DNA of 34,588 nt from a virus (Duplodnaviria > Caudoviricetes), in IMG/VR virus record IMGVR_UViG_3300020431_000001, positions 1 through 34,588 of that record. One strand, given 5' to 3'. Shown piece after piece: positions 3,531 to 34,326 of this stretch. The notes under the pieces were generated by a model. It saw nothing but the letters and a program-made list of their open reading frames with translations, was not told where the DNA came from and made no database searches. Position numbers and translations under genes: made by a program. Every line of letters begins with the position of its first letter. Position 1 is the first letter of the stretch.

Positions 3531-3768
3531 CGGTTACGAGAGAACACCAGAAGATGAGAAACATATTAACGATTTAATTGTTACTACATTCAATACGCAA
3601 GCTGGAATAGAAACTTTAAAGTATCTTAAATCTATTACAACAGAAAGAGTATCTGGTCCTGATATAGAAGCAAATCATTTGTTTCATAATGAAGGAGCAA
3701 GGTTTATTGTTGCTATATTAGAAACAAGAATCAGACAATATGAAACTCTAAAAGAAGGAGATAAATAA
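3496..3768 (+). CDS. Bbp19-like conserved podovirus protein
   Basis: TF.T.AG..TLKYL and L.HNEG.R motifs; lies between portal and scaffold. Confidence 0.7.
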   Translation: MPQTKKKILGPDGYERTPEDEKHINDLIVTTFNTQAGIETLKYLKSITTERVSGPDIEANHLFHNEGARFIVAILETRIRQYETLKEGDK

Positions 3769-9804: not shown

Positions 9805-12161
9805 TGGCAATAAAGAATAAAAGATTAGTAACTTCTATAGGTAATATCTCAGTAGGACAATCTTACGCTGGAGGAGAAGCAGCAAAACAAGTAGGCAAAG
9901 CAATATCTGGGCTAGGAGATGTATTAGATAGTACAGTAACATATGCAAACAGAAAAAATAGTAGTGGTCTATCAATAGAATATATTAATACATTAGGTCA
10001 AATACAAAGAAATGAAATTAAAAATGTAGATGAAATAAGTGTAGCAGATGAAACAGAGCAAGCTAAACTTACACAAGCATTTTTAAACCAGGATTATGAA
10101 GCAGACCAAAGAATAACAACTGACAGTGTAGCTACAAGACTTTTTGTTGGGCCAATAAATGATTATATAAATAAACATTTTGATACAACACAAGCTGGAA
10201 CTATACCATTTGGAAATAATTTAGATGATTTTGATCCAGAAGCAGAATTTGATAATTTAATAAAAATATTTAAAGATGGAGAATTTGATTCTTTAAGTGA
10301 AGAAAATCAAGAAACAATTAGAAGTAAAATTATTTTACAAATGTCAAACAAAGTAAGCTCTTTACGACAAAGTCACAATACGATTGTAAGAGCTACTGCA
10401 GACAACAAAGAATGGAATCAATATCAGGATTCTTATTCTGATGGTGTTGAAACAGCAGTTGCTACAAACGGTCTTGGTGGTTTGTTAGTATACAATAAAA
10501 ACTATGAAAATACTGCTGTAGAATTAGCAGTAAAGTTACGAAAAACATATCGTAGAGGTTCAATTACCGCTGCGAATTTACAAATTTTTACTGACGCTAT
10601 AATAGATCAAGCATATCAATCTGATGAAGGACAAGACTATATAAAATCATGGATTAAAGTATTAAACAATAAACAAGAATCTGTTGGCGTTTCTATAGAT
10701 GGTAAAACAGAATTTATTACTAAAGATGATTTAAACGACTATGGTATTAATCCAGAAAATCAAGTTGAGTTTGAAAGAGAGCTTACAGATCATTTAAACT
10801 TAAGTGTTTCTATACAATCTGGAGTACAATTTTTAGGAGCTGGTGGTTCAAACGGCATATATACAGATGTTCAAGCAGCAGAAATAGAAAAAGTTACAAC
10901 CTCTGCAATAGAAGAGTTAACAACCAATCAAGTAGATTCAAATTTTGCTAACATGCCAGTAGAAGAAAAAAGAAAATATTTTAAAAGTTTTGCTTTTACA
11001 ATAGCTTCAGAAAGTAATTATGTAGGAAACAGTATGTCAGATGAAATAGTTAATCAACTTGTAACATCTGGAAACATAGTCGAAATAATGGAAATAGTTT
11101 CTACGTTTGCTAAAATAGAATCTGTTAATACAGGAGCTATTGAATATGGAGATGGTGAAAGTGCTAAAAAATTAGAAAATTTAATAAAACATTATACTGT
11201 TGATCCAGAATTTAGTTTACTTTCTGGTAACAGCATAAGTGAAAGAGTGCAAAATTTTTTACAAAACAACGAACCTATGATTAACGCAGAAAGAGTAACT
11301 GTTTCAATGAAAACAAAATCTGGTAATCTTGATAGTAGTGTAAAATTAAGTAATCTTTTAGGAGTAGGTAGTAATGTTTTAAGTGTTAACGATCAAAAAT
11401 CTTTTACAGATTTATTGTCTGATGGGTTAAGTGAACTTAATAGAAACGAAAGAAATAAAATTCAAGCGACTTTAGGGTTAGACGAAACATTTAGAAAATC
11501 AGATAAAAAAGACGTAGCTAAATTTTCACAAATGCTTACATCAAGAGATCCTATATTTGCAGACTTTATAAAAAACGAAATTTTACTTTCTGTAAGCAAT
11601 CAACTAAATAATACAGAAGAAGGTAATAACGAAGCTATTGATTATAATACATTAAAAGCATATTCAGTTAATGCTGTTGTTAAATTTTCAAAACAATTTA
11701 CATATGATCCTGATAGTAGAAATGGATTTGTTAAAAAAAATAGAGTGCCTGTTACTGCTAAAACATTAAATCTTCCTAAAGAACAACAAGTTAGAATAGT
11801 AGAAAGTAGTGGCGATAAAATATTTAGTTATATAGACAATACAGATAAAGGATTTTATGACAAAGATGATTTACAATTAGAGTATACTGGTGAGGTTGGT
11901 ATTAAAAATGAGGGAGAAGATTTTGTAGCTAGAGCTTTTCAAGTTTATATTTTAAATGATGCTGGTATTTCAGTAGAAGCATATAGAATTACTGAAGATG
12001 GTACTAGAAAAAATATAATTTGGTATGACACAGGGGACAAGCCTCTTACACAAGAAGAATTAAAAAAGAAAGCAAAAGAAAAATTAACAAGTATTAATAA
12101 TTCTCAATCAAAAATTGAAGAGATACTCAATCCTTTTGGATTTAGTAGAGAAGTGTACTAA
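9804..12161 (+). CDS. Internal virion (ejection) protein, gp15-like
   Basis: 785 aa, largely helical, TAATG-coupled; assignment by synteny. Confidence 0.6.
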   Translation: MAIKNKRLVTSIGNISVGQSYAGGEAAKQVGKAISGLGDVLDSTVTYANRKNSSGLSIEYINTLGQIQRNEIKNVDEISVADETEQAKLTQAFLNQDYEADQRITTDSVATRLFVGPINDYINKHFDTTQAGTIPFGNNLDDFDPEAEFDNLIKIFKDGEFDSLSEENQETIRSKIILQMSNKVSSLRQSHNTIVRATADNKEWNQYQDSYSDGVETAVATNGLGGLLVYNKNYENTAVELAVKLRKTYRRGSITAANLQIFTDAIIDQAYQSDEGQDYIKSWIKVLNNKQESVGVSIDGKTEFITKDDLNDYGINPENQVEFERELTDHLNLSVSIQSGVQFLGAGGSNGIYTDVQAAEIEKVTTSAIEELTTNQVDSNFANMPVEEKRKYFKSFAFTIASESNYVGNSMSDEIVNQLVTSGNIVEIMEIVSTFAKIESVNTGAIEYGDGESAKKLENLIKHYTVDPEFSLLSGNSISERVQNFLQNNEPMINAERVTVSMKTKSGNLDSSVKLSNLLGVGSNVLSVNDQKSFTDLLSDGLSELNRNERNKIQATLGLDETFRKSDKKDVAKFSQMLTSRDPIFADFIKNEILLSVSNQLNNTEEGNNEAIDYNTLKAYSVNAVVKFSKQFTYDPDSRNGFVKKNRVPVTAKTLNLPKEQQVRIVESSGDKIFSYIDNTDKGFYDKDDLQLEYTGEVGIKNEGEDFVARAFQVYILNDAGISVEAYRITEDGTRKNIIWYDTGDKPLTQEELKKKAKEKLTSINNSQSKIEEILNPFGFSREVY

Positions 12162-15100
12162 TGCCACTTTTTGAAGATGATAATATAGGAAGTATAGAAA
12201 GAGATTTTTTTAAAAAAATAGAACCTATTGAAACAGAAACAGAAAATAAAGCTGAAGGTATTGGCTTTAAAGATATATCAAGTTTGCCATCCCTTGCTTC
12301 ATATGTATTAAATAATTCATCACAAATATGGGATGATGTTTCAACTCTTTGGAAAACATTGCCAGTCTCCGAAATAAGTACTTTAATACAAAGAGAGAGT
12401 GTAGTTAAACAATTTGGTGTTGATGAAGATTTTGTTAATAACGAATTATGGTGGCAACAAGCTGACAAAGAATTGCTTTTTCATCAGAATGGAAAATTTG
12501 TTAAAGCAATAAGTGAAGCTAATAACTCTCAAGAATTAAAAATAATACAAGATAATATCTATGAAAACCTAGAAGCAAAAGAAAAAATAGGTGATTACAA
12601 TATGGGTTATCAATTATTTTTGTGGAGTACATCTTTAGCCCAAGATCCTTTTATGGTGTTAAATCCAACAAAAGGTATTCATACTTTAAATAGTGCAAGT
12701 AAAAATTTTGCAATAGCTGCAACAAGAACAGCAGCACTAACAATGCCATGGGAAGTAGCAAGATTACAATTAGATCCAACATCAGATTTTAAAGAACTAA
12801 AATATACTTTAGGTGGAGCAATGTTATTTGGCGGAACTATTGGTTCTTTAATGGGAAAGTATAGTAAAAAATTAAGGCATAAAGAAATAGACAAAGTTTT
12901 GAATGATTCCTGGGATGAAATAAATGATCTTATTGATATGCCAAGAAACGAAATGTATTTACTTGGATCAAAGCAAAGAACAAAAGATATAAATTTTAAT
13001 GAGATAGATGAAATATCAGATCAATCATGGAGAAATGATATTTTAAGAGATATAGATGTTAGTAATATTGCTTTTAGAGTAACAAGAAATATTTTAAAAA
13101 GACCTTTTGGTTTAGATAAATCTTGGTTAGATGAGTCTTACGATTCTGTAACTGTTTTAGTAAAAGGAAAAAAAATATCTATTAAAGAAGGTAATGAAAT
13201 ACTAGACATAACAACTAATTTATCTGGAGACAATAGTTATTTACTTACTAAAACTGATGAAACAGTAGAAGCTTCTGTAAATACTCTTTATCAAAAAAAT
13301 CAATATGGAAAAATTCATACAGTAAAAAAATCTATTAATGATGCTTTTTTAGAAATAAATGACATTCAAAGAGGTTATGGATTAGGAGGATTTTTTGGAG
13401 ACATAGATCTTAATATGCAAGCAAAAAGATTAGGAACTACTATTAACAAAGTTAGTCCTATAAAAGTAACAGAAGATGTATTAATTAAGAAAAAAGATAT
13501 AGAAACTTTATTATATTTTGAAAGAGGTTATGCATCAAAAAATTTAGATGAGTTTATAAATAATCATAAAGAAATAATACTAACTAATGATCGTGAAAAA
13601 ATAGCAAAAATATATAAAGCTGTTAAAGAACAATCTAAAGTTTATGGTTCTGTTTATGATGATGTTAAAGCTGATTTAATAAGCGTTGGATTATTAAATG
13701 ACGATTACTCTGCTACCTTAAGAAAAACTATAGATGATTTAGAAGCAAAAATTTCTAAATACAATAACTTAATAAAACAAACAAAAGCAAAAAAAAATAT
13801 AAAAAAAGAAACTAAAGATTTAATTTTATCAAGGTATCAAAACGAATTAGATAAAGTAAGTTTAGTGCTAAGAGCAGAAAAAGAAAACTTAGCAGACTAC
13901 AAGCCAACTGTTGAAACAAAATTTCAAAGTGATTATGTTCCAATTATATATGACACAGGAGCAATAAGAAGAAATAGAGAGTGGGTTACAAATGAAATAA
14001 CAAAAATATATAGTGGGCCTAGAAAGTTAGCAAGAAAAAGAGCAGAAGAAACAATAAAAAAAATATTAAAAGAAGGTGATGGTAATTTTCAAAACACATC
14101 TGGTGTTGGAAGAAAAAAAGGATCTTCTTTTTTACTAGAAAGATCCTTAGATTTACCACCTCATATATTAAAAGTAATTGGTGTAACAGATCCAGAAATT
14201 GTTTTTAAAACATACATTAGAAAAATTGGACCTAGAATTGAAATAGCTAAAAAATATGATGGAGACTTATCATTATCAAAACAACTCGATAGAGTAGATG
14301 AAATATTTAATGATGCTATATTAAAAGCAAAATCTAAAAAAGAAATCAATAGTCTTGATTTACAAAGAATGTTGCACAAACAAAACATAGAAGATATGCG
14401 AGATTCTTTATTAGGCAATCTTATAAAAAATTCTGATGGTAATAGAATAGATGCAAAAATTGCTAGAGATTTAAAAAACTCAGCAGCAATGGCTTTAGGT
14501 GGTACGTTTGGTGTAAATAGTTTTATTGATATGACAAACATTTTAGCTGCTCAAGGATTTAAACCAATTTTTAATACAGCAAAAAATTTATTAACATCTA
14601 CTAAAGCTGCAAGAATTGCTTTAGCAGAAAATAAACAGTTATTAAAAAGCTGGGGTATTTTAAGTGAAATGTCTATGTCAACAGTTGGAGCTAGAGTAAT
14701 AGAAGATGACGGTGTTTTTCCTACTGGCAATAGAATAAGTATGCTTATGGACAAAGGAGCAAATGAAGTACACAAATATAGCGGACTAGGACCTATAACA
14801 AATTTTTTAAAATCAATATCAGGAAGAATATCTCAACAATCATTTATTGAAACATCAATAGAAATTGCTAAAGGTGTAACATATGTAAATGGTAAACCTA
14901 AAGTAAGAATAGACCATAAAAAAAGATTACACATATTAAATATGTACGGTCTTTCTTTAAGAGATGTTTTAGATATAGGACTACAAAGAGCTGGTTCTGG
15001 TGTAACATACACAGAAACAAAAGGATTAGGAACAAAACTTTATAATGTAAATACTGATGCATGGAAAGGAGCAAGAGGTCAAGAACTTGCAGATAAATTT

Positions 15101-24076: not shown

Positions 24077-24289
24077 ATGATTAACCAAGAAACTTTTTTA
24101 GAAGATGTAATAGAGGATGACCAACAAGTATATGTCATACCTTATGCAGACAAGTTAAGGATATGCGTTAATAACAAAACAGTCTGGAAGCCTATGACTG
24201 TTGATGCGTATATGCACTTTATTGTTGGATGTATAGACTCAATGCAAGAGATGAGAAGATTAAACAAATGCAAGTGTGGTAAAAACTAA
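24077..24289 (+). CDS. Hypothetical protein
   Basis: AGGAG RBS; coupled to the next gene. Confidence 0.65.
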   Translation: MINQETFLEDVIEDDQQVYVIPYADKLRICVNNKTVWKPMTVDAYMHFIVGCIDSMQEMRRLNKCKCGKN

Positions 24290-25326
24290 TGCCTATGCCA
24301 CCTGTACCAGAGGAAGAATTGTTAGAAGTTCTTACTGCTGATGAAAGTTTCAACAACAGATACGAAGCTGCTGAATCTTTAGGATTAAAATACGCAACCT
24401 ATATGCAAAGATTACATAAGGCTAAAAACTTACAACCTGATTTTGAAATACCAGATCTTCCTAATGAAGAGATGGACATAGAAGAATTAGTACAGACTGT
24501 AACAGATAGATACGAAAGAAGAGCTAAAGCAAAAGATGCTCAAGACTGGATTGATATTAAAGTAAATATTGATGGGCCTATAGGTATACTATGGATGGGA
24601 GATCCACACATAGATGATAACTACTGTAACTGGACTAGACTAAGAGAAGATATAAAACTTATACAATCTAACTCAGCTATTAAAGGTGCGTCTATAGGTG
24701 ACGTTCATAATAATTGGATAGGTCGTCTCAGTTTGAAATGTAGCCCTGAGCAAGAGACCACTACGGCACAGACTTATGCTCTTATACACTGGCTTATAAA
24801 CAATATGGATCCTCTTATATTAATTAGGGGTAACCATGATTGTTGGACACCGTTTCATAAGGATGCAATGACATGGATGTCACAACCTAAAAGCATTACT
24901 AATGACTGGCAAGTAAAGTTTAAATTAAATTTTCCTAATGGGTATAGTCTTAGTGTAGATTCTCGTCACGATTTTCCAGGTCACTCTCAGTATAATCCTC
25001 TTCATGCTCAGATGAAAGCTTCTCTTTGGAATAGTGATGCTGATCTGTATATTGCTGGTCATCGTCATAACTGGGCAATCCAGAAAATAGAACAACGAAA
25101 TGGGAAAGTTGCTTCGTTAGTTCGGTTAAAAGGATATAAAGATTACGATCAGTATGCTGTTGAGAAAGGGTTTTCTCAGCAGAAACATGGTCAATCAATA
25201 CTGCAAGTGATTGATCCATACTCTTCATCAGAGTCAAAACAGAATTTCTTTGAGAATCCTCAAGAAGGTCACGACTTTCTTTTGTATCTTCAAGATAAGT
25301 ATGGTAAAGATCCACATAAGAAGTAA
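24289..25326 (+). CDS. Calcineurin-like metallophosphoesterase with N-terminal HTH-like segment
   Basis: GDPH, GDVHN, GNHD, RH, GHRH metal-binding motifs; AAESLGLKYATY..RL HTH-like start. Confidence 0.85.
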   Translation: MPMPPVPEEELLEVLTADESFNNRYEAAESLGLKYATYMQRLHKAKNLQPDFEIPDLPNEEMDIEELVQTVTDRYERRAKAKDAQDWIDIKVNIDGPIGILWMGDPHIDDNYCNWTRLREDIKLIQSNSAIKGASIGDVHNNWIGRLSLKCSPEQETTTAQTYALIHWLINNMDPLILIRGNHDCWTPFHKDAMTWMSQPKSITNDWQVKFKLNFPNGYSLSVDSRHDFPGHSQYNPLHAQMKASLWNSDADLYIAGHRHNWAIQKIEQRNGKVASLVRLKGYKDYDQYAVEKGFSQQKHGQSILQVIDPYSSSESKQNFFENPQEGHDFLLYLQDKYGKDPHKK

Positions 25327-25570
25327 GAATATTTTTATCTAATACCTCTGCTTTCTTACAACCATGCATTATAGTTGAATGATCTTTGTTAAACTTGTGT
25401 CCTATCTGTGTGTAAGATAAGTTAGTAAATTTTCTTGATAAGTAATAGGATATAAACCTAGCGTTGACTATAGCTTCGGTACGTCTTGAGCTTTTGATTT
25501 CATCCCATGAAGTATTGTTATCTTCTAATACTTTATTGATAACTTTGTTAAGTGATTTGTTTTTGAACAT
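24950..25570 (-). CDS. DnaA domain IV-like (Bac_DnaA_C) HTH DNA-binding protein
   Basis: S.RR...IV.AR.I.YYLSRKFT.LSY..IG..F.KDHSTIMHG..K; likely start ATG at 25570 with AGGA RBS; C-terminal tail overlaps the phosphoesterase antisense. Confidence 0.8.
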   Translation of the reverse strand: MFKNKSLNKVINKVLEDNNTSWDEIKSSRRTEAIVNARFISYYLSRKFTNLSYTQIGHKFNKDHSTIMHGCKKAEVLDKNILTSYVDLYHTYLEDTKESRDLLEDSQRNSVLTLMKSMDQSLAVLIDHVSAEKTLSQQHTDRNLYILLTELTKQLSHFVVLFSGLPSYDDDQQYTDQHHYSKEKLSSEHEEDYTESDLENRDENLH

Positions 25571-25613
25571 AAGATTTCCTTTATAACATTTATATTTTTT
25601 TTTGGTACGCACT

Positions 25614-27451: not shown

Positions 27452-28009
27452 TTACTCCTTAAGTTGTTGGCATACTTGTTTATGTAAAGTGATTAAGTAT
27501 TTTTTAAGTATGCGTTTTGGTATATCTACTTCGTTACTGTACTTAATCAATACAGCAATAGTAGGGTAGTCACCTGTAGTTATTACTTTAGTACAGGCAT
27601 ATTCCAAAGCTACTAAACTGTATTCTTTTAGTGCTTCGTAATATAAGTTAATAAAATTATCAGCATCGTTATCTGGTATTATTTTGGGCCAAAGTAAAAA
27701 TACTTTAGACAACAGCTCAACAAATGCTTCTTCATCTAATGGTACTAATAACTTAGTAACATTAAATAGATCTGCTTCAACATCATCTAAGGCATTACTT
27801 AGTTCTGTCTGAGATAGAGATGATGGTATCTCTATTTGTGCTAGAAACTTTACTCCTTCCAGATATTGCGTTGCGAATTTTGTCAGCGGCATCCGTGCTT
27901 TCTGCAACAGGGTATTCATCTGTCCATCTTCCTGATTGTAGCCAGTTGTTTGCGTGCTGTGTGTACTGATTTGATTCTTTAATAAATTTTTTGTATCGTC
28001 TTGCTCCAT
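27452..28009 (-). CDS. Putative helicase loader/replication accessory protein (start uncertain, probably downstream of 28009)
   Basis: LYYEALKEY....LEYAC......YPTIA.L resembles phage loader-type proteins that follow initiators. Confidence 0.5.
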   Translation of the reverse strand: MEQDDTKNLLKNQISTHSTQTTGYNQEDGQMNTLLQKARMPLTKFATQYLEGVKFLAQIEIPSSLSQTELSNALDDVEADLFNVTKLLVPLDEEAFVELLSKVFLLWPKIIPDNDADNFINLYYEALKEYSLVALEYACTKVITTGDYPTIAVLIKYSNEVDIPKRILKKYLITLHKQVCQQLKE

Positions 28010-28172
28010 CTATTATCTCCTCCGATGTTGCATCACCATCTTGTATTGCTAATACAAAGTAGTATTGTGCTGACCACTTGTTAGTATGTAGGGGGTACTG
28101 TTCCCAGAAAGAATTAAACTCTGATTCTAAGTTAGCTTTCTTTAGGTCTTTTGGTTTTAATATTTTCATCAT
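27795..28172 (-). CDS. Replication initiator-like protein (C-terminal-domain type)
   Basis: F..FW..YP...K..A and H...WL...RW.DE motifs seen at the C-termini of phage replication proteins. Confidence 0.6.
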   Translation of the reverse strand: MMKILKPKDLKKANLESEFNSFWEQYPLHTNKWSAQYYFVLAIQDGDATSEEIIDGARRYKKFIKESNQYTQHANNWLQSGRWTDEYPVAESTDAADKIRNAISGRSKVSSTNRDTIISISDRTK

Positions 28173-30365: not shown

Positions 30366-30610
30366 TACTTCTCTCCATTATCTTCTGTTGCAAGGTCATC
30401 ATTCATGGCGTTAATAAAACCACCAATCATTAGACCTTTATGTGCTTCACTAAGCTCTGGGTTATTTAATATATCTATTACATTACCCATTACATGGTCG
30501 ACATACTTGGTCTTGTATTCATCAAGATAACCACCGTTATCTTTGATTACTTTATTCTTCATGCCAGTAACTAAAGCGTCAGCTGGACTTGGTATTTTTT
30601 TATCAGTCAT
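30365..30610 (-). CDS. Hypothetical protein
   Basis: AGGAG RBS; coupled to the next gene. Confidence 0.65.
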   Translation of the reverse strand: MTDKKIPSPADALVTGMKNKVIKDNGGYLDEYKTKYVDHVMGNVIDILNNPELSEAHKGLMIGGFINAMNDDLATEDNGEK

Positions 30611-30674
30611 TGTGTTCTCCTATATGATAAAATTATTATAGCACTATACACATTAATCCACAAGCTCTGCTATA

Positions 30675-30947
30675 TTAAACTTGCTTGGTAAACTCAAGTT
30701 CATACTCACCTTTATTAAGATGGGCCTCTACTAATACTTTGTTGTTAATAGAAAACCTAAAGGTTTGAGATCCGTCATCATTTTTTTTATGTGTAACTCT
30801 GTGGTCACATAAAGTGTGACTGTTCATAGATGATGTGCCTACTTTAATAGTAACACAACCATCTTTTCTGTTACCGTATGACTTACTGCCTTGATACAAA
30901 CAGTTAGTCACGTCATTCCATATTGGGTATTGTCTAGTCATTGTCAT
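30675..30947 (-). CDS. Hypothetical early protein
   Basis: AAGGAG RBS; YPIWN.V..C.Y..SKSYG motif. Confidence 0.7.
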   Translation of the reverse strand: MTMTRQYPIWNDVTNCLYQGSKSYGNRKDGCVTIKVGTSSMNSHTLCDHRVTHKKNDDGSQTFRFSINNKVLVEAHLNKGEYELEFTKQV

Positions 30948-31187
30948 CTCCTTTTGTTATATCTGCTTGCACTTTTAAAGTCGTTCCATCCCAACAGATT
31001 AAAAGATGGTGGTGACTATTAGAATTTTTTTCTGTTGTTCACCTAGTGTTTTACGAAAGTGGCTTTTACCCTGGGGAAAGGGAAGCCGGTGGCATTAGCT
31101 ACGTGCCTCAATTCTTCACCAGATGAACAACATAGTCTGCAAAGCATTGTTAAAAATAATGATTTAACAATAACCGTTAAATGCAGA

Positions 31188-31218
31188 CAAAAGAATAGCC
31201 GAATAAATCGGCTACTCT
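31188..31218 (-). terminator. Rho-independent terminator of the 204-aa gene
   Basis: The - strand reads agagtagccga-tttat-tcggctattct-tttg, starting 10 nt after the stop codon. Confidence 0.7.
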
Positions 31219-31228
31219 AAATCTTAGA

Positions 31229-31843
31229 TTACTTTATCTTAGATAGTTTTAGCTTTTGTTCTTTTAACAATTGCTCTGTTGACTTAACCGTAACTGATGG
31301 TTTCTTAGAATCTTTATTCCATCTCTTTTGTTGGGCTACCTGATATTCATTATAAGTTTGACCAAAGAAGAATGTCCAAAGATAATCACCAGTATAGAGT
31401 CTTTTCTCTTTCGCAAACTTATCTAGCTGTGCTTGGTTTAAGTCGATGAAAATGTCATGCGTATTTAGTCTAGCTAAAGCACCAAGTTCTGGTGAATGAA
31501 AAGGTCGACCATTTTCATCGGTAGTACCATCTCTAAGAGATTCTTCTTCGAAGTTCTTAAGCATTTTAGAGATGTCTGCGTCAATCCAATCGTTTTCTGC
31601 CATAATTTGGTGATACTTTTGTTGATGGATTGTTATGCTTCTAGTGAAGCAACTTATATTATGATTAACTTCCTTAAGTTTACCTTTGATTAAGTCTCGG
31701 GCTATCTTATTTGGGTAGTGTTGACCAGCTAAATTACCATTAAGGTAAATTCCAGCTCTCTTACCATCCTTGTAAGTATCTAACTCTGAAACGGAAGCGT
31801 TTAGTAGTTCCTCGACGAGGTCGTTTTGATTTTTTAAAGACAT
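31229..31843 (-). CDS. 204-aa orphan protein forming the left arm of the inverted repeat
   Basis: Intact ORF with AGGAGA RBS, own promoter and terminator; no family recognised. Confidence 0.8.
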   Translation of the reverse strand: MSLKNQNDLVEELLNASVSELDTYKDGKRAGIYLNGNLAGQHYPNKIARDLIKGKLKEVNHNISCFTRSITIHQQKYHQIMAENDWIDADISKMLKNFEEESLRDGTTDENGRPFHSPELGALARLNTHDIFIDLNQAQLDKFAKEKRLYTGDYLWTFFFGQTYNEYQVAQQKRWNKDSKKPSVTVKSTEQLLKEQKLKLSKIK

Positions 31844-31879
31844 AGTTATTCTCCTATCTGTCTGTTAATGGGATATACC

Positions 31880-31907
31880 ATTATGCTAACCCCACATACA
31901 TTTTCAA
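31880..31907 (-). promoter_or_regulatory. sigma70-like promoter for the 204-aa gene
   Basis: The - strand reads TTGAAA-16 nt-CATAAT, with an A-tract upstream; -10 about 36 nt before the ATG. Confidence 0.6.
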
Positions 31908-32049
31908 ACGAACTCTTTTTTGCACCCTCTTGGGGGTATATGTTTCATAAAAACATATACGAATAATATCTGGAAACAAGAATCGCCGGAAAGCTTGCTT
32001 GAGGAATCGACTGAAATACTTCAGTCGTTCTATTCTTGGTGTAGGATAT

Positions 32050-32819
32050 TGCAAAATCGGATTGAATCTGTATTTGTTGGGTTTGCTTTGGTATATGCTT
32101 TTGACAGACAGATAGGCAGAATGACTAGTCTTTACAAAAGCGAAACGCCCTCGGCGTTGGAACTGCTTAACGGTTGCGTTTCAGAGTTAGAAACTTACAT
32201 CTCCTCGCCTTGGGCGTGGTGAGTAGGATGGTCTGGAATTTCCTTGATGGTCATTTAGATGTGTTGTCAACACACCCAAATGAGATGGCACGTGACTTTA
32301 ACAAAGGTAACTTAAGAAGTTAATTGTAATATAAGTTAGGTGAACTTGAAGTATCACAAGCCATCAAGAAAATATCCCAAATTATCAGAAAAGGATGGAT
32401 TGTCCAGACTTCCTAAAATCTTAGAAGTTCGGAGAAGAATGTCTTAGTAGATGGTCTCCGATGACAATGTCACCTTTTCACCACCAGGAGTTGGCGGTTT
32501 AGCAGACTAAATGCATGACATTCTTCATTGACTTAAGCCTAGCACTGCTGATAAGTTTGCCGTAAGAGAAAAACGAATAGACTGGTAGGTTATCTTGGAC
32601 TTTATTCTTTGGTACAAACTTGTTATGAATATGAGGTAGGCAAACAAAAGTTTAGATGGAATAGATTCTAAGGAATCGTCAGTTGCTTAAGTCAACAGAG
32701 TGATTGTTAAAAGTTACAAACGCTAAACTATCTACGATTAAGTAATCTTGATTTAGAGTAGACTATTTATGAGACCTATTCTTAGGTCTGCTTTTAACAA
32801 TCAACAATGCTTTGCAGAC
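32050..32819 (+). pseudogene. Non-coding inverted mirror of the 204-aa transcription unit (probably a structural arm rather than a simple pseudogene)
   Basis: Start codon deleted (ctATGtc -> ctagtc), RBS interrupted (aggaga -> aggcaga), -10 destroyed, many frameshifting indels; residual translation ELLNGCVSELETY vs ELLNASVSELDTY. Confidence 0.8.
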
Positions 32820-32977
32820 GGTAGTTACAACCATAGCTATCCTGATAATACTATAATGTAGATTACTCGAATCTAATAAGTCAATCAGCCGTGTTGTCAC
32901 TTCGTGACTGCCCGCACCCAGACTGTTGACTTTTAGATTACAAGCAATCTTGTGATTGCGTATAACAGGAGATAACT

Positions 32978-33163
32978 ATGGACATAACTACTCAACAAAA
33001 CATTGCAGATATTATGATTACAAGCACTCTTTTCTTAGCAGTCGCTATACTAAGCTATGTAACTTACATCGCATTTAAACAAGAATTAACGCTCTGGATT
33101 AGAATACCAGCACTTATCTTAGCGATGCTAAGTCTAGTGCTTCTGTCATTATCTGGACTATAA
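32978..33163 (+). CDS. Small two-TM membrane protein
   Basis: AGGAGA RBS; two hydrophobic helices. Confidence 0.7.
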   Translation: MDITTQQNIADIMITSTLFLAVAILSYVTYIAFKQELTLWIRIPALILAMLSLVLLSLSGL

Positions 33164-33196
33164 ACAGATATATTTAGACATATGTTGATAACTGTA

Positions 33197-33225
33197 TTGA
33201 CATATTTATAATCTATCCCTACTCT
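33197..33225 (+). promoter_or_regulatory. sigma70-like promoter upstream of terS
   Basis: TTGACA-17 nt-TACTCT. Confidence 0.65.
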
Positions 33226-33264
33226 TTAAGTAACACGATTCATTACTTAATTTGAGGTTAACAT

Positions 33265-33648
33265 ATGTCTAAAGTACCCAGTACAAATAACCAATCGCTG
33301 ACACAGCTTCAGCAGAGTTTTGTAGATAACTACTTAGCCAATGGTGGCAATGGTAAACAGGCTTGCATAACGGCAGGATACAGCGAGAACTCAGCTCATG
33401 TTCAGGCGAGTAAATTGGTTAAGCTTCCACACATACAGCAAGCCTTACTCAAAGGTACTGCAGAAGCCATTGGTCTAGGCTCTGCTAAAGCTGTTCAGAA
33501 GTTAGTGTCTCTATCTGGCGGAGCTAAGTCAGAGTATGTTCAGCTTGAAGCATCTAGGGATTTATTAGACCGTGCTGGATTTAAAGCACCAGATAGAGCC
33601 GATATACGGCTTGATAGTGATATAAAGATTAGTATTGATTTAACGTAG
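33265..33648 (+). CDS. terS: Terminase small subunit
   Basis: LT..Q..FVD.Y...GGN...A...AGYS..SA...AS.L...P.I; SEYVQLEAS.DLLDRAG; GAGG RBS. Confidence 0.9.
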   Translation: MSKVPSTNNQSLTQLQQSFVDNYLANGGNGKQACITAGYSENSAHVQASKLVKLPHIQQALLKGTAEAIGLGSAKAVQKLVSLSGGAKSEYVQLEASRDLLDRAGFKAPDRADIRLDSDIKISIDLT

Positions 33649-33991: not shown

Positions 33992-34143
33992 TGGTAAAAA
34001 GAAATCAACCACCACACCGCCCAAGGGTAGAAGAAAGATTGGCACACTGCGTGCAATGTCAAAGAAGTCTAAGTCGTACTGATAAATACGTCATCAATAT
34101 GTTAGATGATTTTACTTGCCTAGCCTGTTACGAAGGTAGATAA
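33991..34143 (+). CDS. 50-aa CxxC...CxxC zinc-finger-like protein, absent from the ORF track
   Basis: TAATG coupling; MVKRNQPPHRPRVEERLAHCVQCQRSLSRTDKYVINMLDDFTCLACYEGR. Confidence 0.65.
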   Translation: MVKRNQPPHRPRVEERLAHCVQCQRSLSRTDKYVINMLDDFTCLACYEGR

Positions 34144-34326
34144 ATGGATAAATCTAAAAAGAAAGAACAAAGTGGTATTGATATACTAGGAAAATTCCTT
34201 GAATCAGAAGATAGTATGGAATGTTCTAAATGTTCTACGAATATAAACTTTGATGATAATTTTGTTTTTACACACGACAGTAGATTGTTATGTAGAAGTT
34301 GTTTTGAGCATAGTAAATGCAATTAA
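34144..34326 (+). CDS. 60-aa CxxC...CxxC zinc-finger-like protein
   Basis: CSKC...CRSC; starts right after the previous stop and overlaps the terL start. Confidence 0.65.
   Translation: MDKSKKKEQSGIDILGKFLESEDSMECSKCSTNINFDDNFVFTHDSRLLCRSCFEHSKCN

Follow-up and report, generated by a model that had tools for sequence, protein, structure and literature searches.

A gene-length inverted copy of a complete transcription unit upstream of terS in a marine tailed phage, with mismatches biased toward folding of the template strand

DNA hairpins of phages are known from packaging and transcription, as in the T7 concatemer hairpin and the promoters of the N4 virion RNA polymerase. In the single-stranded DNA (ssDNA) promoter Frpo, the template arm lies 5' and the non-template arm lies 3'; Masai and Arai reportedly treated the Frpo/ssi ssDNA promoters in 1997. 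Passages of two papers place Frpo and ssi (ssp) as ssDNA promoters in the leading regions of conjugative plasmids (PMC11541004, 10.64898/2026.01.09.698686), and the searches for Frpo outlined in the former used regions of 50 to 350 bp (PMC11541004). For the ssDNA hairpins of attC sites, a section of one study gives G:T mispairs at 1.24 versus 0.39 per site in favor of the preferred strand, with an energy difference of 7.6% (PMC5027507).

The window analyzed here is the whole 34,588-nt record, a circular phage contig (34.5 kb, terminal overlap of 77 nt) whose terminase, portal, capsid, and tail genes mark it as a tailed phage. The plus strand carries T7-like structural genes and the terminase, and the minus strand carries a leftward block with an SSB, a RecE-like exonuclease, a replication initiator, and an HTH protein, a gene content from which we infer that the block is early. 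The closest cultured phage is Pelagibacter phage EXVC031P Hodr (TerL, 63%; TerS, 47%), and the sequencing runs containing DNA of the phage carry the label of marine or seawater metagenomes. The last gene of the late block encodes a metallophosphoesterase with the annotation of a DNA repair exonuclease (phrog_7339; 24289 to 25326, plus strand), and an antisense ORF of 220 aa that belongs to no family overlaps it (24950 to 25612, minus strand). Two minus-strand ORFs (27452 to 28009 and 27795 to 28172) also overlap, the shorter of which matches replication-initiator families; they are possibly a split or frameshifted replication gene. A 60-aa ORF before terL (34131 to 34316) is absent in related strains, as seen from a joint of 34130 with 34317 in RNA run X17 and the same gap in L007 and L014.

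Between the first gene of the leftward block and terS (terminase small subunit; 33265 to 33648, plus strand), here and in relatives, lies a noncoding arm that mirrors the first gene. Local alignment of the gene sense with this mirror gave 633 matches, 100 substitutions, and 94 gap columns and defined a fold-back of 1,685 nt, of which 615 nt are coding. On its plus strand, the left arm (31135 to 31924) is the template strand of a whole minus-strand transcription unit. This unit consists of a sigma70-like promoter matching 10 of 12 consensus positions (31880 to 31907), an AGGAG resembling a ribosome-binding site and read off the alignment (31851 to 31855), a 204-aa gene (31229 to 31843), and, after the stop codon, an intrinsic-terminator-like hairpin with a T tail (31182 to 31218). 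The 125-nt loop (31925 to 32049) contains small hairpins at 31924 to 31937 and 32008 to 32027; the latter is terminator-like on the plus strand, and no such plus-strand site is found in the loop of the related locus L004. The mirror arm (32050 to 32819, plus strand) is 86% identical to its counterpart at aligned columns, with 45 indel events, 14 to 24 stops per frame, and a longest perfect run of 17 nt. In the mirror, the -35 region is paired imperfectly, the -10 hexamer is broken, and the counterparts of the ribosome-binding site (interrupted) and start codon are broken; the terminator hairpin is mirrored too, but its own stem is broken within the copy. Promoter-like plus-strand sites lie to the right of the mirror. 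A second such element was not found in the genome, the next inverted score being 56 compared with 792. The mirror carries extra sequence at the same place, around codons 25 and 26, in this window (13 nt, 32200 to 32216) and in L004 (46 nt, 3586 to 3631).

The predicted structure resembles Frpo/ssi elements in two ways: a hairpin of one strand spans a promoter that precedes the genes required earliest in a new host, and the template strand is, by prediction, the one that folds. It differs in belonging to a tailed dsDNA phage without known ssDNA entry rather than to a conjugative leading region or T-strand, in measuring 1.7 kb rather than 50 to 350 bp, and in duplicating a coding region and terminator that co-evolve with a protein sequence. 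An Frpo hairpin spans the -35 and -10 elements on the template strand; the arm here includes both, but the mirror breaks the -10 hexamer, and consensus promoters are unclear in most relatives. By this analogy the element may work as Frpo does, while its context and size place it outside that group. The T7 and N4 hairpins are likewise strand-specific DNA hairpins near genome ends or podovirus early genes, but they are tens of bases long, and no match to the virion RNA polymerase family was found in this genome. No description of such gene-length mirrors was found in open-access PubMed Central and bioRxiv, a search with subscription journals largely outside its range, and the same sources yielded no paper on Hodr.

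The 204-aa protein belongs to no PHROG or Pfam family and has no match in cultured phages, no usable match in the Atlas, and one relative at 47% identity. A profile search added eight distant proteins of the L007-L013 type, and extending the locus search with this wider profile yielded no further finds. The predicted structure of the protein is a long alpha-helical hairpin (mean pLDDT, 81.5), and the model of the other main mirrored family is alike. A fold search of the 204-aa protein returned generic helical hairpins only, none a significant match (best Z, 9.0; rmsd, 2.6 over 79 residues). With no family match either, these results speak neither for nor against a function like that of the Gam-like DNA-end protection proteins. 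RNA contigs, which show neither strand, level, nor absence, cover the gene and stop at 31870/31871 in three of four runs (two studies; runs found via this DNA). These ends lie just downstream of the -10 region and are a weak hint of a start near 31874, so that about 50 nt of apparently untranscribed promoter DNA would be mirrored. An earlier note on this DNA, made from its letters alone, held that the folded species is not the mRNA, which is borne out by the contigs, since they end short of the mirror. The mirror was without RNA contigs in three of the four runs, a count that cannot establish absence, and the fourth run had two short contigs in or at the mirror. One RNA contig jumps over 30621 to 31119 (window, 30622 to 31118).

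The substitutions between the arms are strongly strand biased. Transitions from gene to mirror comprised 20 A>G and 6 C>T compared with 3 T>C and 1 G>A, a ratio of 26:4 toward G-T pairs on the plus strand (binomial P = 3e-5 against 0.5 and 2e-4 against base composition) which was stable over four scoring schemes (26:4, 25:2, 25:2, and 30:6). The hand counts of the earlier note (about 16 A>G and 5 C>T versus about 2 T>C and 0 to 1 G>A) were close to the aligned values for 32100 to 32800 (20, 5, 2, and 1, respectively), its eight quoted motifs are all at the expected places, and the imbalance that it reported persisted in the formal alignment after correction for composition. Its doubt that neutral decay produced the bias also proved sound: the 4-fold degenerate sites of this genome predict ratios of 0.84 (plus-strand genes) to 1.81 (minus-strand genes) compared with the observed 6.5 (26 of 30 tested against 1.81, P = 0.006), and G>A was seen once. 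Transversions, which outnumber transitions 70:30, lean the same way, with A>T at 21 versus 5 T>A and C>G at 14 versus 3 G>C, giving T.T and G.G on the plus strand. Mismatch rates by gene base were 50/271 for A, 28/130 for C, 7/129 for G, and 15/203 for T. Strand-biased G:T mispairs in an imperfect hairpin, 26:4 here, recall the ssDNA hairpins of integron attC sites; this element, unlike those, is more than 10 times longer and has one protein-coding arm. No integrase family occurred among the 42 ORFs scanned, and the element is single, with no cassette array.

The mirror also tracks its gene through evolution. The lineage comprising L002 to L006 (48% protein identity) carries its own mirror, with a bias of 29:2 in L004 and 26:4 in L002, and mirrors score 700 to 790 against their own gene and 106 against that of the other lineage. 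At 261 differences between the gene in this window and that of L004, both mirrors match their own gene at 156, one gene only is matched at 23, 54 show other patterns, and 28 are gapped; insertion points common to both lineages within 1 nt numbered 6 of 12 compared with 0.8 expected. The tracked sites and shared indels therefore indicate one old, co-evolved element. Between L004 and L002, which are 97% identical, 5 of 15 gene changes have a matching mirror change (0.35 expected, P = 9e-6); among 14 other close pairs, changes were mostly too sparse or compensation was weak (L028/L035, 11 versus 10.1 expected; L061/L056, 1 versus 0.5). Ten RNA-contig variants fell in the gene arm, of which one restores a mirror match, five break one, two alter an existing mismatch, and two are unaligned; seen apart from their own mirrors, these variants are uninformative.

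The substitutions are spread evenly over codon positions (22, 30, and 24) and therefore sit in the noncoding arm. The perfect runs between interruptions are shorter and more regular than in re-aligned simulations in this window, L004, L084, and Hodr; the longest run was 17 nt here (null median, 27; as low a value in 1 of 300 simulations), 13 compared with 25 in L004, and 11 compared with 21 in Hodr. The regularity fell short of significance in L086 (P = 0.22) and was borderline in L079 (0.05), and four- and six-base palindromes were not clearly broken above background in five lineages. What is maintained in the noncoding arm is an imperfect complement of one whole transcription unit. This architecture is real, selected, and apparently undescribed.

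For relatives, we took the best 80 of 592 terS relatives, dropped 13 with less than 700 nt upstream, and kept 67. An inverted alignment scoring at least 75 lay upstream of terS in 38 of these 67 (drawn from the best 80 of 592), compared with a maximum of 46 in 55 downstream control regions; this threshold was chosen after the control scores, and AT-rich DNA reached 85 to 110 elsewhere, which leaves the weakest cases uncertain. Adding this window, L004, and Hodr to the 38 gives 41 loci in 19 clusters, and within this sample of the best 80 of 592, 17 clusters lean to the plus strand, two tie, and none is reversed, some leans being slight (7:5 and 8:6). In all 41 scored loci the arms are inverted and adjacent, with loops of 22 to 158 nt, and in nearly all the left arm overlaps the start of the leftward gene, which belongs to at least two gene families without detectable homology (homology probability of the two main mirrored protein families, 0.4%). 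The mirror spans the entire gene in the five strongest cases, in four of them (this window, L004, L079, and L084) through the post-stop hairpin, and covers the promoter and 5' part of the gene only in the other relatives. It starts 56 to 115 nt upstream of the start codon in most relatives, and the short mirrors of L007 to L013 span about 330 to 550 nt. A clear sigma70 consensus is present in this window and not in most relatives. Ahead of the ribosome-binding site, about 15 to 45 nt from the start codon on its upstream side, many relatives (L028, L041, L067, L079, L084, and L086) carry a short palindrome (operator-like or a 5' leader hairpin); it is broken in the mirror in most of these, not in L086.

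Gene and mirror are exchanged as one unit. L007 is about 95% identical to this phage on both flanks, with an identical TerS. The two diverge solely in the interval from 31132 to 32844, whose ends are those of the fold-back, and there L007 has its own, different first gene and a short mirror. Loose RNA-contig ends at 31082 to 31119 also point to variation at this border. The cultured pelagiphage Hodr has a mirror that departs from its gene mostly through indels and shows no strand bias; neither do the short mirrors of L007 to L013, and the energies of the two strands do not differ in Hodr (7:5), L007, L008, L011, and L012. The Hodr mirror (L087, record positions 11890 to 12717) overlaps about the first 49 codons of terS (score of 90 versus a null maximum of 39), and two opposite-strand coding genes are thus partial mirror images of each other. 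The locus tags of the GenBank records named Hodr (L087) and Baldr (L088) bear each other's names, a point to mind in procuring the isolate. No clear mirror was found in HTVC010P, Baldr (5 kb examined), or MEP301 (6 kb examined); an alignment scoring 110 in HTVC010P lies at the joined record ends in AT-rich DNA with 20 G.T versus 33 A.C.

Predicted folding energies support a preference for the plus (template) strand. The minimum free energy was -531 kcal/mol for the plus strand and -464 kcal/mol for the minus strand as DNA and -879 and -758 kcal/mol, respectively, as RNA, making the plus strand 14 to 16% more stable. The earlier note had singled out the plus strand as the folding species: the preference stands here, in the second lineage (29:2), and, in direction, in 17 of 19 clusters, and the energy comparison agrees with it both as DNA and as RNA, but the minus strand would also fold well, still pairing 626 (DNA) or 639 (RNA) bases between the arms. 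The symmetric cruciform, which the note had set aside, is unlikely here as well, given 145 interruptions, the 125-nt loop, and an extrusion cost beyond the supercoiling energy: with a duplex at about -2,112 and two hairpins at -995 kcal/mol, the predicted cost is about 1,117 kcal/mol, compared with the 110 to 704 that supercoiling could return.

The reading that we favor, at a probability of about 0.45, is that the mirror is a DNA fold-back that would let the first predicted early gene be read from a single-stranded template strand, a giant Frpo-like element. Early in infection the plus strand would be bared as ssDNA, for instance when host nucleases resect 5' to 3' from a genome end near terS and leave it as a 3' overhang. 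On folding, the mirror would stand in for the non-template strand, and promoter, gene, and terminator would be rebuilt as a duplex which host RNA polymerase might transcribe despite the mismatched -10 region. The regular interruptions may leave the repeat short of the lengths that recombination and hairpin nucleases require and may also prevent extrusion from duplex DNA. In favor of this reading, mirroring extends about 50 nt beyond the apparent transcription start on its upstream side and takes in the terminator at the other end. The order of the arms, template 5' and non-template 3', is that of Frpo, and the co-evolution of the arms, the strand-biased mismatches, the joint exchange of gene and mirror, and the plus-strand promoter-like sites to the right of the mirror likewise favor it. 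Against it, the promoter looks adequate in ordinary duplex DNA, and the RNA contigs therefore need no hairpin; the -10 hexamer is broken on the would-be non-template strand; we know of no single-stranded phase for this phage; RNA energies fit the mismatches better; many relatives mirror the 5' part only; and Hodr and the short mirrors lack the bias.

A plus-strand DNA fold could instead serve genome handling, such as end protection, snap-back priming, or concatemer or terminal-repeat processing near terS, the gene being mirrored as the adjacent sequence. The constant position just upstream of terS, the reach of the Hodr mirror into terS codons (score, 90; null maximum, 39), and the short mirrors without strand bias speak for this reading. 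Parts of the literature provide precedents, in which ssDNA promoter hairpins double as replication barriers and primer sources (10.64898/2026.01.09.698686) and divergent inverted repeats fold back in long ssDNA in yeast (PMC10164571). As for genome ends in other phages, terminal repeats of 125 bp are reported for Skadi (PMC10504331), whereas those of MEP301 are left open (PMC8024684). Genome handling leaves unexplained why long mirrors end at the terminator and start near the -35 region and why a coding gene should bear the cost of co-evolution when a noncoding palindrome would do, and we regard it as rather unlikely.

The energy models lean slightly to RNA over DNA for the folded species, which bears on the suggestion that the folded molecule is a long plus-strand RNA that is antisense to the gene and extends across the mirror, its self-folding serving to neutralize or process antisense read-through. 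Conditional-logit fits of site choice (1,078 isolated columns, six lineages) gave, in their both-strand versions, an lnL of -720 with RNA energies and -736 with DNA energies, the minus-destabilizing term outweighing the plus-stabilizing term. G.T is the commonest mismatch across the six lineages (190 of 503), and an enrichment of U.U would suit RNA; T.T exceeds A.A by 42:3, two mismatches that DNA energies score as equal and whose imbalance neither energy set explains well. The contigs in the mirror in one RNA run also fit such a transcript. Against it, a plus-strand transcript of at least 1.7 kb running against the early block would be required, a plus-strand terminator-like site lies in the loop here (absent in L004), and the two closest lineages show no predominance of G.U over G.G and G.A. 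At template G in this window, the mismatches were 14 G.G, 8 G.A, and 6 G.T, and G.G and G.A were as frequent as G.T in the two closest lineages, a pattern that looks more DNA-like than RNA-like. This frequency, the mirrored promoter DNA, and the terminator-like loop site suggest ssDNA, and damage-type mutation on an exposed plus strand could add to the bias, which would also point to plus-strand ssDNA. Rfam covariance models gave no matches at an E value of 0.1 or below in 30500 to 33500. We consider the folded antisense RNA unlikely.

Three further explanations appear improbable. Occasional template switching or gene conversion might homogenize the arms of a repeat without selected function, and the quick compensation seen in closely related strains could then reflect a copied change instead of two mutations. 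Mismatches ought to vanish under such copying, yet lineages whose genes are 57% identical have indels in common; the interruptions show more regularity than chance would give; and about 770 nt of noncoding DNA is retained in a compact genome, in an architecture that recurs over unrelated genes. Still harder to credit is a mirror that is transcribed on its own into a sense-like decoy RNA, acting in trans by pairing with the template strand or antisense guides: wobble pairs would work in such a hybrid, and two short RNA contigs lie in or at the mirror, but the mirror -10 is broken, untranscribed promoter DNA is copied, and the constant inverted adjacency (loops of 22 to 158 nt, 41 loci) points to pairing in cis. 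Least probable is a recent inverted duplicate decaying under strand-biased mutation, whose one-strand gains of C>T, A>G, A>T, and G>T resemble the damage spectrum of exposed ssDNA and may contribute to the bias. This reading is largely refuted by co-evolution, the mirror tracking the gene over deep and shallow divergence, in a second lineage and with shared indels; the neutral skew is also far too small, and transversions outnumber transitions 70:30.

If the preferred reading, a DNA fold-back of the template strand, is correct, a more doubtful extension would make it a fail-safe in a widespread group of marine podoviruses: an entering genome that loses one strand to host nucleases would fold its survivor onto the co-evolved mirror, rebuild the whole first gene as duplex, and so switch on or preserve a counter-defense gene from ssDNA. 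We know of no reason for a tailed dsDNA phage to keep a gene-length complement of its own gene. What is new is the architecture; should an Frpo-like mechanism hold, the mechanism would be a scaled-up version of a known one. If the fold is DNA, these phages would at some stage, so far unrecognized, have single-stranded DNA near the packaging region, and the ssDNA-driven expression of conjugative plasmids would extend to whole phage genes; if it is RNA, it would be an undescribed kilobase hairpin. Because the cultured Hodr carries a version, the question is open to bench work. Either way, the mirrors flag several uncharacterized, first-expressed protein families as candidates for roles in host takeover or counter-defense.
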